NCBI GenBank assembly: GCA_902634185.1
Contig: CACPJC010000001.1
Location: 64,001-128,000 of the forward strand
Direction of reading: 5' to 3'
Source: an uncultured Candidatus Actinomarina sp.
GTDB lineage: Bacteria > Actinomycetota > Acidimicrobiia > Actinomarinales > Actinomarinaceae
DNA length: 64,000 nucleotides
Shown: positions 42,850-46,925 of the stretch, piece by piece
Layout: every line of letters begins with the position of its first letter
Position numbering within the stretch: position 1 is the stretch's first letter
Program-made: the position numbers and the translations under genes
The notes under the pieces: model-generated
The model's database searches: none
Told to the model about the DNA's origin: nothing
The model's input: only the letters and a program-made list of their open reading frames with translations

Positions 42850-43578
42850 ATGAATCCCGTAAGTTTTGGAACAAAATTAAAAACACTTTTTATGTTTCCA
42901 TTATTCCTAATTATATTTAGCTTTTTAATAATTCTTATAATACTTACGGTCTTTATTCCAAATGGAAAGTTATTAGCTACAAAATATTACAAATTTTTTG
43001 GATGGCTAGGATTAAGAATGGTTGGGATTAATTTAACCGTTTCTGGTTTAGAAAATATTGATACCGACAAAAGTTACGTTGTAGTATCTAATCACCCATC
43101 AACTCTTGATATATTTACCCACATTTATGGGTTACCAATATCTGTAAGATTCCTAACTAAAACTGAACTTTTTCGTATTCCTTTCTTTAGTAGAGTATTA
43201 AAGATTCTGGGTCTTCCAAGAATTGATAGAGGTAGTTCATCATTAGATCTTGATAAAATTAATAATTCGATACAAAGTGTTATAGATGATGGTAATTCAA
43301 TAATGATATTTCCAGAAGGTAAAAGAAGTAATCAAAAAAATCTTTTGGAATTTAAAAAAGGAGCTGCACATATTGCTAAAAAATTCAATTTATCTGTTCT
43401 GCCAGTTGTTACACACAATGCCCATAAATTAATGATTAAAGGTAAAGTTTGGTTTTTATCTGGTGATATACATATGGATGTTTTGAAACCTATTGACGAT
43501 ATACATAAGTATGAAGTTGATGAATTAACAAATCTATTTTTTGAAAAAATAAATGAGGTTTTAACTACGAAGAAATGA
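42850..43578 (+). CDS. plsC: 1-acyl-sn-glycerol-3-phosphate acyltransferase
   Basis: NHPSTLD, IDR, FPEGKRS, FKKGA. Confidence 0.9.
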   Translation: MNPVSFGTKLKTLFMFPLFLIIFSFLIILIILTVFIPNGKLLATKYYKFFGWLGLRMVGINLTVSGLENIDTDKSYVVVSNHPSTLDIFTHIYGLPISVRFLTKTELFRIPFFSRVLKILGLPRIDRGSSSLDLDKINNSIQSVIDDGNSIMIFPEGKRSNQKNLLEFKKGAAHIAKKFNLSVLPVVTHNAHKLMIKGKVWFLSGDIHMDVLKPIDDIHKYEVDELTNLFFEKINEVLTTKK

Positions 43579-44100
43579 TTCTATATAGCTGAAGAAGTCT
43601 TTACTTTTGGAATCATCAGTTAGTAAATCATCAACTTTATCTTCTTCATTAAATAAATAAAAATTTTCGTATACGTTTAATCCATAATTGCTAAGTTGAG
43701 CGCCAAGTAAATTAAATGCATTCTTTGCATTGTTGCCCTTACCGTCAACTGAACTAATAATTGCAACATCCTTATCTTTAAACAATTCATTGTAAGAATA
43801 GTTATCGAAACTTATTGAAAGCCAATCGAGTAAATTTTTCAAATGGGAGACATAACCTCCATTGAAAACAGGACTAAATATTATTATTTTAGAAGTTTCA
43901 ATTAAATCATCTCTTACTTTTATGACATATTCAGGTTGTTCATCATTGTAATCTCGGAGAAAAGGAACATTTTCATAAAAATCATCATATAGATTACAAG
44001 ATATCTCTAAATCACTTAGGTAGCTATTTACGATACCTGCGGCTTTATTATTTTTTGATTCTGGTCTTGTTCCAGCCGATAAAAGCAAAATTTTTGACAT
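43561..44100 (-). CDS. NADPH-dependent FMN reductase family flavoprotein
   Basis: GTRPESKN, SPVFNGG...LKNLLDWLS. Confidence 0.85.
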   Translation of the reverse strand: MSKILLLSAGTRPESKNNKAAGIVNSYLSDLEISCNLYDDFYENVPFLRDYNDEQPEYVIKVRDDLIETSKIIIFSPVFNGGYVSHLKNLLDWLSISFDNYSYNELFKDKDVAIISSVDGKGNNAKNAFNLLGAQLSNYGLNVYENFYLFNEEDKVDDLLTDDSKSKDFFSYIESFLRS

Positions 44101-44130
44101 AGGTTAATTATGTTATAAGATACTTTTTAT

Positions 44131-44463
44131 ATGGATAGTAATGTTGAAAATTTTGCAAACCTAGACATAAGAGTTGGTCAAATTTTATCAGCTGAAGTTT
44201 TTGAAGAGGCAAAAAAACCTGCATACATTTTAAAAATAGATTTTGGAAATGATATAGGTGAAAAAAAAACAAGTGCTCAAATTACAAATTATCAGCTAGA
44301 TGAACTGATTGGAGTTAGATGTATTGGAGTAATCAATCTTGGTGACAAACAAATTGGTCCGATAATTAGTCAATGTTTAATTCTTGGATCGATCAACGAT
44401 AATGGGGATGTTTTACTGCTTCAACCCAGTCCAGAAGCTGATTTAGGTGACAAAGTTTCTTAA
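44131..44463 (+). CDS. csaA: CsaA/Trbp111 tRNA-binding chaperone
   Basis: DIRVG, KPAY.LKIDFG, SAQIT.Y, VINLG.KQIG..S.CLILG. Confidence 0.9.
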   Translation: MDSNVENFANLDIRVGQILSAEVFEEAKKPAYILKIDFGNDIGEKKTSAQITNYQLDELIGVRCIGVINLGDKQIGPIISQCLILGSINDNGDVLLLQPSPEADLGDKVS

Positions 44464-44933
44464 CTAACCAAAGAGTCAAACTTCTCAACATTAAAAGTAC
44501 CGACCCTTTTATAAATTTTATCTCCATGTTTGTCTACAAGAACATATGTTGGTGTATATTTAAGATTATATTTTTCAATAGTCTCAAGATAATCTTTTTT
44601 TGAAGCATTTACGGATACAATTGGTATTTCTTCATGCTTTTTTTTGAATTCATTAACTATGAATTTTGAAGCAGTACAACCTAGTCAATAGTCAGAGTAA
44701 AATTCAATTATTGTATATTCAAAGTTTGAAAAATTATGATTATCAACAACTAAACCTCGCTTTGAATTAAATAAATACAATCCAAAAAAAGAACCTATTA
44801 CAAAAAAACTTAATATATATAGAACGATTGAAGGCTCAAATGCGATAAAAAATATCACTAAGCCAAATATCCAGCCCAAAGGTAAGTAAATAAGGCTGTA
44901 TCTATTGATAAACTTTAAAAGAATTTTTTTCAT
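44460..44933 (-). CDS. Membrane-anchored thioredoxin-fold protein with UxxC motif (probable selenoprotein, in-frame TGA at codon 83)
   Basis: The 82-aa ORF ends IIEFYSDY-TGA. The frame continues LGCTASKFIVNEFKKKHEEIPIVSVNASKKDYLETIEKYNLKYTPTYVLVDKHGDKIYKRVGTFNVEKFDSLVS to TAA at 44460-44462, completing a thioredoxin fold (157 aa). Confidence 0.8.
44647..44665 (-). promoter_or_regulatory. Candidate bacterial SECIS element
   Basis: AAUUCAU-AGUUA-AUGAAUU 7-bp hairpin. Loop follows 26 nt after the UGA, with GU at loop positions 2-3. Confidence 0.6.
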
Positions 44934-44968
44934 ATATTTACATTCTTTTCACAAATTATACTTTAATT

Positions 44969-45379
44969 ATGGATCTGATTAATAAACTCAGAGATAATGG
45001 TAATCGTATTACTGAGTCTAGAAGTACAATTTGTAAAATTCTTGAGGAAGCAGGTCATGAGCATTTTACAGCAGATGAACTATACAAACTAGCCTTAAAC
45101 AGGGTTCAAGACATTGATTTAGCAACCGTATATAGAACACTAGAAATTCTTGAGTCATTAGATCTCGTAGAACATTCACACCAGCAACATGGTTCAGGAA
45201 TTTATTATCTTAAAAACCAAGAAAGAACTGCTCATATAGTTTGTAACAGTTGTAAAAAGATTAAAGACATTTCAAAAAACGTCATCAACGCTGTCGAAAA
45301 AATTATTGCAAAAGAATCAAATTTTAATTTAATTGACAATCATTTCGTGTATGCGGGAGTTTGTAATAAATGTAAATAA
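44969..45379 (+). CDS. Fur-family metal-responsive regulator (Zur/Nur-like)
   Basis: RITESR, HFTADEL, DLATVYRTL, HIVCNSC, C-terminal CNKC. Confidence 0.92.
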   Translation: MDLINKLRDNGNRITESRSTICKILEEAGHEHFTADELYKLALNRVQDIDLATVYRTLEILESLDLVEHSHQQHGSGIYYLKNQERTAHIVCNSCKKIKDISKNVINAVEKIIAKESNFNLIDNHFVYAGVCNKCK

Positions 45380-45386
45380 CTATTTT

Positions 45387-45407
45387 TATTGCAAATTGAT
45401 TGCATTA
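45387..45407. promoter_or_regulatory. Candidate Fur/Zur-type operator
   Basis: Imperfect palindrome TATTGCAAATTGATTGCATTA abutting the -10 box TAAAAT (45406-45411) of the ECF genes. Confidence 0.55.
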
Positions 45408-45417
45408 AAATATTGTC

Positions 45418-46182
45418 ATGTATCCTACAAGCCACCAACATCATTTATCAATTCATGAAAATTCTGAATTAAAGAATATTAAACCCCAGCAAAAAGTATT
45501 AGGTTGCTTTTTAATTGTTTTGTCTATTGCATTTTCTGATGTAAGAGATCTATTTCAAATATTCATGCATATATTTTTAGTTTTTTATATTTTATCACTG
45601 ACAAAAATTCCAACTAAAACTTATTTAAAGAGATTAACTTTAGATATACCTTTTATTTTATTTGCATTATTCCTTCCATTCCTTAGCAGTGAGAATAATG
45701 ACAAAATATTTGAAATTTTTTCATTTAATGTTTATCAAACAGGTGTAAATGATATGTTTACAATTTTATTCAAAGCAACTTTAGGTTTGACCGTTGGAAT
45801 AATTCTTACGGGAGTAACTTCAAGCATGGAAATAATTTATGGTCTCCAAAAATTAAAAATTCCAAATATCATTATTGCGATCATGTCCTTCACGATACGA
45901 TATATTGATGTATTCATTGATGAGTTCAAACGAGTTAAAATTTCAATGGCATCAAGAGGTTATGTTGAAAAAGGTTTAAAAACCTTAATACCTATTGCGT
46001 TTGCATCTGGAGCCCTATTAATTCGAGGATATGAAAGAGGTGAAAGAGTTTATTTATCCATGATATCAAGAGGGTTCAATGGAAATATAGATTTCAAATC
46101 TCGAAATTACGAAATTTCTAACAAATTTAACTTTTGTGTTATTTTATCAATCATAACTTTATTGTTGGACAAGATACTATGA
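45418..46182 (+). CDS. cbiQ: ECF transporter T component, CbiQ/NikQ-like
   Basis: His-rich N-terminus, RYI, SRG x2, RGYERGERVY.SM.SRGF. Confidence 0.85.
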   Translation: MYPTSHQHHLSIHENSELKNIKPQQKVLGCFLIVLSIAFSDVRDLFQIFMHIFLVFYILSLTKIPTKTYLKRLTLDIPFILFALFLPFLSSENNDKIFEIFSFNVYQTGVNDMFTILFKATLGLTVGIILTGVTSSMEIIYGLQKLKIPNIIIAIMSFTIRYIDVFIDEFKRVKISMASRGYVEKGLKTLIPIAFASGALLIRGYERGERVYLSMISRGFNGNIDFKSRNYEISNKFNFCVILSIITLLLDKIL

Positions 46183-46925
46183 CTAAATATTTAGAAGTTA
46201 ATAATTTAAGTTATTCCTATCCAGACGGTCATGAAGCATTAAAAGATATAAGCTTTGATCTTGACAACAAAGAGTCATTGGCAATATTAGGGCCTAATGG
46301 TGCAGGAAAAACTACTTTGATTCTTCACTTAAATGGGATTTTAGGAAATCTAGACAAAGATATAAAAGTAAGTAATTTTGAATACACAGATGAAAATATC
46401 GCAGATATTAGAAAGACTGTAGGTGTGGTTTTTCAAGATCCTGATGATCAATTATTTATGCCAACAGTAATAGAAGATGTTATGTTTGGACCAAAAAATT
46501 TTGGATACAATGATACAGAATCTGAAGAACTTGCAATCGATGCACTAAAACAAGTTAATATGATTGATTTCTTAGATAGACCACCACACCACTTAAGTTA
46601 TGGACAAAAACGTAAAGTTGCTATTGCAAGCGTTTTAGCATCAAAACCAAAATTATTAGTTCTTGATGAGCCAGGATCAAATCTCGATCCATCATCTCGT
46701 AGGGATTTAATTGAAATACTCAATGATCTAGAAGTTTCAAAAATTCTTGTGACCCATGACTTGCCTATGGCATTAGAAATCTGTGAAAGAAGTATTGTTT
46801 TAAATGATGGAAAAATAACTCGTGATGACAATACATTAAATATTTTAAAAGATGAAACTTTTATGAAAAATAATAGACTAGAGCTTCCATATGGATTTGC
46901 ATTTCATCATTTAGGTGAAGAATAA
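46179..46925 (+). CDS. cbiO: ECF transporter ATPase, CbiO/NikO-like
   Basis: GPNGAGKTTL.LHLNG, FQDPDDQLF, LSYGQKRK. ATG at 46179 overlaps cbiQ stop. Confidence 0.88.
   Translation: MTKYLEVNNLSYSYPDGHEALKDISFDLDNKESLAILGPNGAGKTTLILHLNGILGNLDKDIKVSNFEYTDENIADIRKTVGVVFQDPDDQLFMPTVIEDVMFGPKNFGYNDTESEELAIDALKQVNMIDFLDRPPHHLSYGQKRKVAIASVLASKPKLLVLDEPGSNLDPSSRRDLIEILNDLEVSKILVTHDLPMALEICERSIVLNDGKITRDDNTLNILKDETFMKNNRLELPYGFAFHHLGEE

Follow-up and report, generated by a model that had tools for sequence, protein, structure and literature searches.

Candidatus Actinomarina very probably makes a 157-residue selenoprotein in which UGA codon 83 is read as selenocysteine (Sec) through a SelB recruited by a hairpin, and which serves as a membrane-tethered thioredoxin-like oxidoreductase. 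Its gene lies on the minus strand of the window, the whole 64,000-nt stretch of an uncultured Actinomarina sp. contig analyzed here. The recoded UGA is conserved, coding selection acts on the part of the gene 3' of it, the genome contains the Sec machinery, the encoded fold is thioredoxin-like, and a hairpin with a loop shared between genes is conserved behind the UGA. Actual insertion of Sec at codon 83, together with the redox chemistry and the substrate of the membrane thioredoxin, we infer. Under the proposed mechanism, Sec-tRNA(UCA) would be brought to the UGA by SelB, itself recruited by an in-CDS hairpin with a 7-bp stem and an AGUUR pentaloop that starts 26 nt past the UGA. In the product, a K/R-rich N-terminal tail would lead into a membrane hairpin of two helices, followed by a minimal thioredoxin fold with Sec83 at the N-terminus of helix alpha-1, Cys86 in the resolving role and, opposite, an invariant Thr-Pro loop. 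Its role would most likely be that of a membrane-tethered selenol/thiol-disulfide oxidoreductase, whose selenolate would attack a disulfide or oxidized sulfur, form a selenenylsulfide with Cys86 and then be re-reduced.

The frame opens with an ATG at 44931-44933 (minus strand) and, under translation table 11, halts after 82 codons (...IIEFYSDY) at a TGA at 44685-44687. A first-pass annotation, made from the letters and a list of open reading frames, had placed this TGA at the first Cys of a thioredoxin motif, and its account of the gene holds. Reading through the TGA gives U-L-G-C, with the Sec codon (U83, 44685..44687, minus strand) at position 1 of the redox motif and the resolving Cys86 codon, TGT, at 44676..44678 (minus strand), followed by 74 more open codons to a TAA at 44460-44462. 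The selenoprotein CDS thus occupies 44463..44933 (minus strand; 157 codons, Sec being codon 83). Its TAA shares 2 nt with the stop (44461-44463) of the convergent csaA-like gene, so the gap between that gene and the 82-codon ORF is fully explained. In this genome, of 32.6% GC, 254 greedy ORFs end with TGA; the read-through extension is by far the longest among theirs that is free of other genes, which puts the frame beyond chance. Scanning for in-frame TGAs by codon score gave excessive noise, with 606 candidates that lay mostly in antisense frames, and was replaced by gene-level scans; one candidate, C12:3500-5700 (227 aa + 402 aa in frame), turned out to combine a gene for a membrane protein with one for an MscS-like channel and is no selenoprotein.

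The domain that carries the motif occupies residues 72-157 (44463..44720, minus strand). The Pfam Thioredoxin profile PF00085 matches residues 72-152 at 28.2 bits (cut-off 23.5), straddling the TGA, and the AF2 model (pLDDT 84.3) contains a strand at 73-79, a helix at 84-99, a strand at 105-109, a helix at 113-121, strands at 129-134 and 139-144, and a helix at 149-156. In this model U83 sits immediately before helix 84-99, and the invariant T127-P128 loop just before strand 129-134. The best Foldseek matches are thioredoxins, with TM-scores of 0.65-0.75 normalized to the target. The profile score above threshold and the modeled beta-alpha-beta-alpha-beta-beta-alpha fold, whose helix 1 has the redox motif at its N-terminus and which includes the Pro loop, make the domain a member of the thioredoxin superfamily. 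Two transmembrane helices precede it, as had also been noted (44763..44897, minus strand; residues 13-31 and 36-57), with a short acidic loop between them and a K/R-rich N-tail at residues 1-12. An N-in/C-in charge pattern, derived from a crude hydropathy window and charge counts, is found in 29/29 orthologues, so that by the positive-inside rule the redox domain is predicted to be cytoplasmic, unlike in most Cys homologues. A search for the CcdA-type DsbD_TM domain came up empty in this genome (83% complete); 26/33 genomes of the genus have it, so it is no help in deciding the topology.

No NCBIfam model scores above its cut-off for either the selenoprotein or its Cys homologues. Canonical TrxA carries the motif W-C-G-P-C, whereas the Actinomarina motif is U-L-G-C and an N-terminal two-helix membrane anchor is added; with 28.8 bits on TIGR01068, against a cut-off of 96.8, the protein is not a canonical TrxA. 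TlpA, ResA and DsbE are likewise thioredoxin-fold redox proteins attached to the membrane, and their site is of the CxxC type, but they face outward and are fastened by a single anchor or a lipoprotein signal, whereas the Actinomarina protein has two helices and a charge pattern that predicts N-in/C-in; its 16.6 bits on TIGR00385 (cut-off 123.15) make it no member of that group.

The protein also resembles an uncharacterized Cys-form family of ~160 aa (two helices plus a thioredoxin domain) that is commonest in Chloroflexota, as exemplified by the Anaerolineales loci L103-L106 and by P0094 and P0156. This family shares the length, the architecture, the N-terminal (F/L)(I/L)N(Q/H/R)YS motif before helix 1 and the active-site context EF(Y/Q)S(D/P)Y-C-x-x-C-(L/M)AAK, in which Cys stands in place of Sec. 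In most of its members the N-tail is uncharged and the inter-helix loop is rich in K/R, which reverses the Actinomarina charge pattern, and its gene neighborhood is unlike that of Actinomarina. Consistent with the expectation of the first-pass annotation that distant homologues should carry Cys, four Anaerolineales loci of the same architecture have Cys at the Sec column (...EFYSDYC(A/I)(G/A)C), and 120/147 further profile matches have CxxC at the active site. A protein-atlas query with a natural Cys homologue returned generic thioredoxin-like clusters only, again commonest in Chloroflexota.

We next turn to the candidate bacterial SECIS (bSECIS) hairpin, which lies at 44647..44665 (minus strand) and pairs AAUUCAU with AUGAAUU in a 7-bp stem around the pentaloop AGUUA (44654-44658). 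All 315 of 315 stem-pair cells (100%) can pair in 45 distinct sequences, compared with 14-56% for slid controls. One of the stem pairs is U-A in 38, U-G in 4 and C-G in 3 of these sequences. The covariation is thin, with 5/7 pairs invariant and only 3 cells changed on both sides, and the count of covarying pairs was equalled or exceeded in 189/500 shuffles. The third-position entropy of the hairpin, 0.17, is the lowest of 149 windows (median 1.17), and the Phe codon at +8 is TTC in 27/27 sequences, while elsewhere in the same genes TTT outnumbers TTC by 323 to 52.

The loop recurs in two unrelated selenoprotein genes of this genome. AGUUR caps a covarying stem 3' of the UGA in 24/24 distinct sequences of a TlpA-like gene and in 20/20 of a SelW-like gene, at a spacing of 16-17 nt after the UGA as against 26 nt in the membrane thioredoxin gene; the loops of the selD and AhpD-like genes differ from AGUUR, which is thus common to 3/5 selenoprotein genes of the genus. 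A genome-wide structured scan, which required a TGA 14-37 nt 5' of an AGUUR hairpin and long open frames on either side, returned only three fitting hairpins, namely those of the membrane thioredoxin, TlpA-like and SelW-like genes. The genome shows no general excess of AGUUR hairpins (20, versus 23-47 for control loops), and the raw pattern TGA-N(6-30)-AGTTR was uninformative (1590+1385 matches versus 1349+1608 for the reversed control). The loop of the E. coli fdhF SECIS has a different sequence. The genus may use a bSECIS whose candidate consensus places an AGUUR pentaloop, carried by a stem of 6-7 bp, 16-26 nt behind the UGA, and SelB would be expected to bind this loop.

The consensus bSECIS model (bSECISearch), as quoted in PMC13188914, includes criteria for loop size, stem length, a loop G followed by U, a spacing of 16-37 nt, and energy. 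The candidate resembles that consensus as an in-CDS hairpin after the UGA with a 5-nt loop, G then U at loop positions 2-3, a 7-bp stem and a spacing of 26 nt, and so agrees with it in four of the five points; in energy it falls short, its AU-rich stem folding at -4.8 (45 nt) to -7.1 kcal/mol (75 nt) against the -7.5 kcal/mol of the model. In some orthologues a shorter stretch, of 66 nt, reaches -12.2 kcal/mol at the lowest. No Rfam family matched within 44400-45000 (0 hits with E values of up to 10), and single-sequence folding found the structure not significant (z-score 0.49), so that the case for the hairpin is a comparative and not an energetic one.

In bacteria, release factor 2 is a competitor of Sec insertion, and the N-terminal part of the gene is well conserved (dN/dS 0.04-0.08 5' of the TGA in close pairs). 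Both points, as well as the weak hairpin, would suit a gene that exploits both outcomes, with a functional 82-residue two-helix peptide made alongside the Sec-containing full-length enzyme in a ratio set by selenium supply. We consider this arrangement very unlikely, given that the membrane-hairpin peptide alone shows no sign of function and that the full domain is always present in the Cys homologues.

The first-pass annotation had proposed that the lineage decodes Sec, and a search of the genome for the machinery bears this out: selA, selB, selC and selD were all found. The selA profile scores 373.9 bits and the selD profile 371.4 bits, the latter gene being of the Sec type, with an in-frame TGA of its own (GAG-U-ACK). 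The selB gene lies 27 nt 3' of selA, matches model positions 2-572 of 581 and carries the SelB winged-helix domain PF09107 (46.4 bits), although its score of 208.3 falls below the NCBIfam cut-off of 242.25. The tRNA-Sec scores 74.6 bits and, among 39 tRNAs, is the sole one with the anticodon tca; the anticodon of tRNA-Trp is cca. TGA also serves as an ordinary stop, as had been claimed: it ends 254/1069 greedy ORFs and 162/675 ORFs of 200 aa or more, including an acyltransferase gene within the window (TGA at 43576-43578). Five selenoproteins were counted in the genome, namely SelD, a SelW-like protein of 78 aa, an AhpD-like protein, a TlpA-like protein and the membrane thioredoxin.

These data also speak to the possibility that the UGA is decoded without selenium, either because TGA is reassigned to Trp or Gly or because near-cognate read-through inserts Trp or Cys. 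Such decoding could draw on the energetically weak hairpin and on the W that stands at the Sec column in 58/65 database homologues. However, the full-length W forms come from short contigs, and their clusters also include forms cut at the TGA; the truncated forms in the databases measure 82-92 aa. They would fit table-4 gene calling on AT-rich contigs, and P0091, P0105, P0106, P0109, P0117, P0148 and P0164 are probably further Sec forms. Moreover, a CxxC fold with Trp in its catalytic position, where homologues have Cys, would be inactive. Together with the ordinary use of TGA as a stop, the tca anticodon confined to tRNA-Sec, the complete Sec machinery and the shared SECIS-like loop, this makes selenium-free decoding highly improbable. 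That databases hold both truncated forms and W-at-site forms indicates that gene callers mishandle the selenoprotein, the truncation having been foreseen in the first-pass annotation.

The reading of UGA83 as Sec is also supported by the comparison of relatives, which upheld the expectations that the TGA should be conserved, that the codons behind it should be under purifying selection and that it should be no sequencing error. An orthologue is present in 29/33 same-genus genomes. At the Sec column, TGA is found in 30/30 genus sequences, at 50-99% protein identity, and in 51/51 Actinomarinales loci, two sets that overlap; TGT or TGC occurs in none of them. Synonymous sites flanking the TGA are near saturation among the orthologues, and dN/dS 3' of the TGA, from orthologue comparison, is 0.07-0.15 at dS above 1, indicative of purifying selection. 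The Cys86 codon in the 30 genus sequences is TGT in 18, TGC in 11 and TTT in 1, and residue 86 in the 51 Actinomarinales loci is C in 50 and F in 1. Since Phe replaces the resolving Cys in one species (U-L-G-F), the two-residue mechanism is not universal. Additionally, independent DNA and RNA-library assemblies, covering 4 runs of 4 studies, have contigs in which the TGA stands unaltered; the RNA-library contigs that span it, which bear on expression, come from 3 studies, can include DNA and give neither strand nor level, and gaps in their cover over parts of the stretch in single runs are no evidence of anything. A nonsense mutation or assembly error, leaving a pseudogene, an 82-residue membrane peptide or no product at all, would agree with the table 11 stop at 82 codons and with the 82-92 aa database forms, but we regard it as refuted, because the TGA is kept throughout these independent assemblies amid near-saturated synonymous sites, the codons behind it evolve under constraint, and no relative with TGT or TGC was found.

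Viewed against earlier work, the gene is a real Sec-containing, membrane-anchored thioredoxin-like gene and a further member of a well-known class, and its novelty is limited. A Sec-containing thioredoxin (Trx, PF00085, UxxC) is among the experimentally verified prokaryotic selenoproteins tabulated in PMC9312934; the protein described here shares with it the thioredoxin fold, a UxxC motif that begins with Sec at the N-terminal end of helix alpha-1, and widespread Cys homologues. Marine metagenomes had yielded UxxC thioredoxin-like selenoproteins by 2005-2008, and in those of the surface ocean such proteins are abundant. The GOS 'Trx-like 1/3' selenoprotein families are likewise UxxC thioredoxin-like and from the surface ocean, and the Actinomarina gene may well be among the published sequences. 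In their accessible portions, the 2005-2008 marine selenoproteome papers link the Trx-like families to no organism, membrane anchor or SECIS; the words 'transmembrane' and 'Actinobacteria' occur in neither paper.

Sec use in the genus has already been reported in the 2026 preprint 'Actinomarina, resolved' (bioRxiv 10.64898/2026.04.03.716425), according to whose accessible text all genomes have selA, selC, selD, the last in Sec form, and a divergent selB. The same text predicts ~5 selenoproteins per genome, with a top family of 78 aa, in agreement with the five found here and the 78-aa SelW-like protein among them. Most families are called uncharacterized there and are grouped solely by their first 20 residues, Rfam models gave no SECIS, and the word thioredoxin has 0 occurrences in the main text. 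New in the present analysis are the genus bSECIS consensus, the membrane-hairpin architecture, the charge pattern that would place the redox domain in the cytoplasm, and the conserved divergent Fur-family neighbor.

This neighbor (44969..45379, plus strand) and the convergent gene for a CsaA-type tRNA-binding protein (44131..44463, plus strand) are both conserved. Between the selenoprotein and Fur-family genes lies a 35-nt divergent control region (44934..44968) that holds a conserved -10-like TATAAT at 44955-44960 (minus strand), picked out by its sequence conservation alone; the region is a putative promoter from which the selenoprotein gene may be regulated together with the Fur-family gene. 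Against the Fur, PerR and Zur models, every score of the Fur-family protein is below cut-off. A fuller account, which we offer tentatively and hold to be possible but doubtful as a whole, is that an ancestral outward-facing, membrane-anchored Cys thioredoxin of the Chloroflexota type was charge-inverted to the cytoplasmic face, exchanged Cys for Sec and came under a bidirectional promoter with the Fur-family gene, its UGA being decoded, like those of the SelW-like and TlpA-like genes, through a lineage-specific SECIS in which the divergent SelB reads the AGUUR pentaloop. If so, the protein would provide a sunlit, rhodopsin-bearing cell with a selenol reductant close to the membrane, and AGUUR would be a simple rule for finding selenoproteins in the genus.

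The finding leaves the known range of selenoprotein kinds unchanged. It does correct a misleading annotation, since public databases show the protein truncated or with Trp at its catalytic site, it supplies a SECIS consensus where the Rfam models of the 2026 preprint gave none, and all five selenoproteins of the genome are now named. One Sec target thus has a fold, an architecture and a likely location. In the surface ocean few free-living bacteria are as abundant or as small as Actinomarina, whose genome measures ~1 Mb. Such a cell pays a real price for maintaining four Sec genes and a tRNA that serve about five selenoproteins, so that each target tells something of what limits life there.

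The frame begins at ATG 44931-44933 on the minus strand, and standard translation halts after 82 codons (...FEYTIIEFYSDY) at a TGA (44685-44687). Past this codon the frame reads U-L-G-C-T-A-S-K... and stays open for 74 further codons until a TAA (44460-44462); two bases of this codon also belong to the stop of a convergent gene of CsaA type (44131-44463). Translation of the minus strand of the window reproduced the coordinates and frame described by the first-pass annotation, which had proposed a hidden membrane-anchored UxxC thioredoxin here and held that TGA is not reassigned. The latter point was borne out genome-wide. In this assembly (974 kb, 16 contigs, 32.6% GC, 83% complete), TGA is the stop codon for 254 of 1069 greedy ORFs, for 162 of the 675 ORFs of at least 200 aa and, two genes from the selenoprotein gene in the window, for the acyltransferase gene. 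Among the 39 tRNAs listed by ARAGORN, the sole tca anticodon belongs to tRNA-Sec and tRNA-Trp carries cca. Code reassignment is ruled out.

The Sec machinery, also named by the first-pass annotation as the thing to look for, is all present. Profile searches of this genome identified selD (371.4 bits against a cut-off of 125) and selA (373.9 against 267.9). A 547-residue GTPase lies 27 nt 3' of selA and aligns to positions 2-572 of the 581-position selB model; it scores 208.3 bits, under the 242.25 cut-off, and bears the SelB winged-helix domain PF09107 (46.4 bits against 23.2). The tRNA-Sec (selC) scores 74.6 bits against Rfam RF01852, with a gathering score of 47, and is named tRNA-SeC(tca) by ARAGORN.

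We then compared the gene across relatives, using the read-through protein as query. Of the 33 species genomes from the same genus, 29 contain a match, and the 24 genomes from other genera of the class contain none; the four genus genomes with no match are 60-80% complete. Each of the 30 matches, own genome counted, contains exactly one TGA, and after extraction and alignment the TGA column was identical in 30/30, at protein identities as low as 50%. The resolving Cys codon is TGT in 18, TGC in 11 and TTT in one. Scanning a species-representative genome collection yielded 55 loci, 51 of them Actinomarina or Actinomarinales-type; in this set, which overlaps the 30 sequences, TGA occupies the column in 51/51 and the resolving residue is C in 50 and F in one. 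By the Nei-Gojobori method on close pairs, where dS already exceeds 1, dN/dS was 0.07-0.15 after the TGA and 0.04-0.06 before it. Such low values downstream indicate that this part is translated in the same frame, and both the retention of TGA in relatives and the purifying selection beyond it are outcomes that the first-pass annotation had named as support.

Two loci deserve separate mention. In one species (locus L043, genome G030) the motif reads U-L-G-F, codon 86 being TTT, with Phe in place of the resolving Cys, in an otherwise intact gene that keeps the Sec codon; either one residue is enough for the mechanism or the function of this copy is changing. Locus L054 is a 4.7-kb contig carrying a 99% identical copy of the entire Actinomarina neighbourhood in a MAG labelled Saprospiraceae, and is probably a binning contaminant.

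Cysteine forms were found outside the genus, as had been anticipated for distant homologues. The four remaining loci of the 55 are Anaerolineales; the proteins they encode, ~160 residues long, share the N-terminal motif and contain a pair of hydrophobic helices as well as ...(I/L)EFYSDY-C-(A/I)-(G/A)-C. When a profile built from 18 orthologues was searched against 1.84 billion representatives, 793 hits reached E <=0.001; among the 147 matches listed outside the close family, 120 have C-x-x-C, 8 W-x-x-C and 2 other residues, and 17 leave the site uncovered. In a word-indexed search, Trp stood at the Sec column in 58 of 65 hits (P0002-P0057 and others) and Cys in none, the other 7 leaving the site uncovered or ending at ...YSDY; further database homologues are shortened to 82-92 aa. 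Clusters with W forms also include members of 81-83 aa ending at the TGA. Judging from the protein records rather than their DNA, the Trp probably arises where gene callers, applying table 4 to short AT-rich contigs, translate the TGA, an annotation artefact that places Trp at the catalytic site. Seven W-x-x-C family members below 50% identity (P0091, P0105, P0106, P0109, P0117, P0148 and P0164), in clusters that include shortened members of 73-83 aa, are probably Sec forms from other marine lineages.

A candidate bSECIS follows the TGA on the minus strand (window 44647-44665), with a 7-bp stem AAUUCAU/AUGAAUU that begins nineteen bases past the UGA and a loop AGUUA that starts 26 nt past it. 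Pairing was observed in 315/315 cells from 45 distinct orthologous sequences, compared with 14-56% of cells when the partners were shifted by 1-3 columns. One pair varies as U-A (38), U-G (4) and C-G (3) and another as A-U (42) and G-U (3), the other five being invariant. Third-position entropy reaches its minimum among 149 windows in the 7-codon window from codon +6 (0.17 bits against a median of 1.17): Phe+8 is TTC in 27/27, against TTT 323 to TTC 52 elsewhere in these genes, and ATA at +9 and GTT at +10 are both invariant. According to PMC13188914, the bacterial SECIS model comprises a loop of 3-9 nt, G then G or U in the first loop positions, a stem of 4-16 bp, a spacing of 16-37 nt and -7.5 kcal/mol; the hairpin agrees in loop size, loop G+G/U, stem and spacing, four of the five, while its energy of -4.8 to -7.1 kcal/mol falls short. 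An Rfam search at the locus returned no family matching the hairpin.

The within-genome comparison of hairpins is the decisive point for the recoding signal. A structured scan of the genome (stem at least 6 bp, AGUUR cap) gave 20 hairpins compared with 23-47 for control loops, and AGUUR hairpins are thus not enriched overall. Only three of the 20 have a TGA 14-37 nt upstream and long open frames on both sides, and these are in the target, TlpA-like and SelW-like genes. The TlpA-like hairpin (AGGGAGG-AGUUG-CCUCUCU, 16 nt past the UGA) keeps an AGUUR loop in 24/24 distinct orthologous sequences over a richly covarying GC stem. Among 20 distinct sequences of the SelW-like hairpin (CCGUGC-AGUUA-GUACGG, 17 nt past the UGA), 16 carry the loop AGUUA and 4 carry AGUUG, and the outermost base pair of the stem occurs as C-G, U-A and G-C. 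The loops of the selD and AhpD-like genes differ from AGUUR. We conclude that the selenoprotein gene is genuine and that its first-pass interpretation is supported.

The membrane thioredoxin (window 44463-44933, minus strand) is the fifth selenoprotein of this genome. SelD itself has an in-frame TGA, in GAG-U-ACK. The SelW-like Rdx protein (C12:1189-1422, plus strand; locus L145:190-423, outside the window) has 78 codons, matches PF10262 (E 5.9e-19) and carries C-I-V-U (CxxU) at codons 8-11, with its TGA retained in 31/33 genus genomes. Its own stop is also TGA, so one codon is read two ways inside a single gene. This gene went unnoticed until the hairpin scan and is probably the uncharacterised '78 aa' top family of a recent preprint, 'Actinomarina, resolved' (April 2026, bioRxiv 10.64898/2026.04.03.716425). 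The AhpD-like, peroxidase-related protein (C3:98495-99055, plus strand; locus L047:196-756; TIGR01926, 135.6 bits against 81.8) contains NEC-E-Y-U (CxxU), and its post-UGA hairpin has the loop GGUC. The TlpA/Redoxin-like lipoprotein (C5:13575-14033, plus strand; locus L048:176-634), with a signal containing L-S-F-C, has the UxxC motif FWADY-U-G-I-C, its TGA being retained in 28/33 genus genomes.

Pfam Thioredoxin PF00085 matches residues 72-152 of the membrane thioredoxin, spanning the TGA (28.2 bits against a 23.5 cut-off). An AlphaFold2 model from an 18-sequence alignment is confident (pLDDT 84.3, pTM 0.76), with helices 2-11, 13-31 and 36-57 followed by a domain of strand 73-79, helix 84-99, strand 105-109, helix 113-121, strands 129-134 and 139-144, and helix 149-156. 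U83 sits just before helix alpha-1, and T127-P128, ahead of strand 3, is invariant among orthologues. The best Foldseek matches in the PDB are the classical thioredoxins 9ncl, 1v98 and 2yzu (target-normalised TM-score 0.65-0.75), and no NCBIfam equivalog was reached (TrxA 28.8 against 96.8, DsbE 16.6 against 123.15). The protein thus belongs to the thioredoxin superfamily without being a canonical TrxA or a TlpA/ResA/DsbE protein; its biochemical role is one that we infer.

In all 29 full-length Actinomarina orthologues, the N-tail holds 3-5 Lys/Arg and zero acidic residues; Lys/Arg number 0-1 in the 4-6-residue inter-helix loop and 1-3 in the flank that follows helix 2. The loop of these Sec forms is acidic. 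Under the positive-inside rule of membrane-protein topology, this pattern predicts both ends, and hence the redox domain, to be cytoplasmic, and the domain probably lies on that side of the membrane. Most ~160-aa Cys homologues and four other W forms show the reverse: the N-tail is uncharged, the loop holds 2-4 Lys/Arg and the C-flank is acidic. By these counts, whose helix calls are crude, the opposite biases may mean that topology has flipped within one family. CcdA-type genes are present in 26/33 genus genomes and do not discriminate between orientations.

Six metatranscriptome runs from five studies contain 60-68% of the stretch's sampled words, and contigs from three bridge the TGA (X14, 44395-44735; X15, 44554-44772; X18, 44629-44808). 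None differs at 44685-44687. Variation does occur at the synonymous sites on either side, 44682 and 44688. The TGA is equally unchanged in an independent DNA run. Because RNA-library contigs can include DNA and are strandless, they weakly suggest expression of the gene across the TGA.

The order acyltransferase, FMN reductase, csaA, selenoprotein gene, Fur-family gene and cbiQ (window 42850-46925) recurs in every Actinomarinales locus with flanks, as compared over 80 related loci. Across 81 loci in overlapping sets, csaA neighbours the gene in 80, Fur in 79 and cbiQ in 79, contig ends accounting for the few absences; none of these neighbours lies beside the four Anaerolineales genes. The block is notable given that the preprint reports no universal same-orientation gene adjacency in the genus. 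The Fur-family gene diverges from the selenoprotein gene, with 35 nt between their start codons (window 44934-44968). Here and in orthologous regions, overlapping -10-like elements on both strands are kept across species; a conserved AAGTATAAT or GTATATTATA lies 21-24 nt 5' of where the selenoprotein gene starts and 5-8 nt from the start of the Fur-family gene. The latter, whose product scored below the cut-offs for Fur, PerR and Zur, may be leaderless, and we would guess that the two genes are co-regulated.

Sec use by this lineage has recently been reported, and the UxxC thioredoxin-like class is already known. Studies of the Sargasso Sea (2005) and GOS (2008) place thioredoxin, Trx-like and thiol-disulfide isomerase-like UxxC families among the commonest marine selenoproteins, and reviews of 2022 and 2026 count >80 prokaryotic selenoprotein families, mostly of thioredoxin-like fold. 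In 84/84 complete genomes of Actinomarina the preprint describes selA, selC, selD and a divergent selB; it also reports that selD exists in a Sec form, that deep-Sep predicts ~5 selenoproteins per genome and that Rfam SECIS models fail. The word thioredoxin is absent from its main text, and its supplementary tables may list the protein. What our analysis adds is a SECIS consensus for the genus, the architecture and probable cytoplasmic-face location of the membrane thioredoxin, a named five-member selenoproteome and the database artefact.
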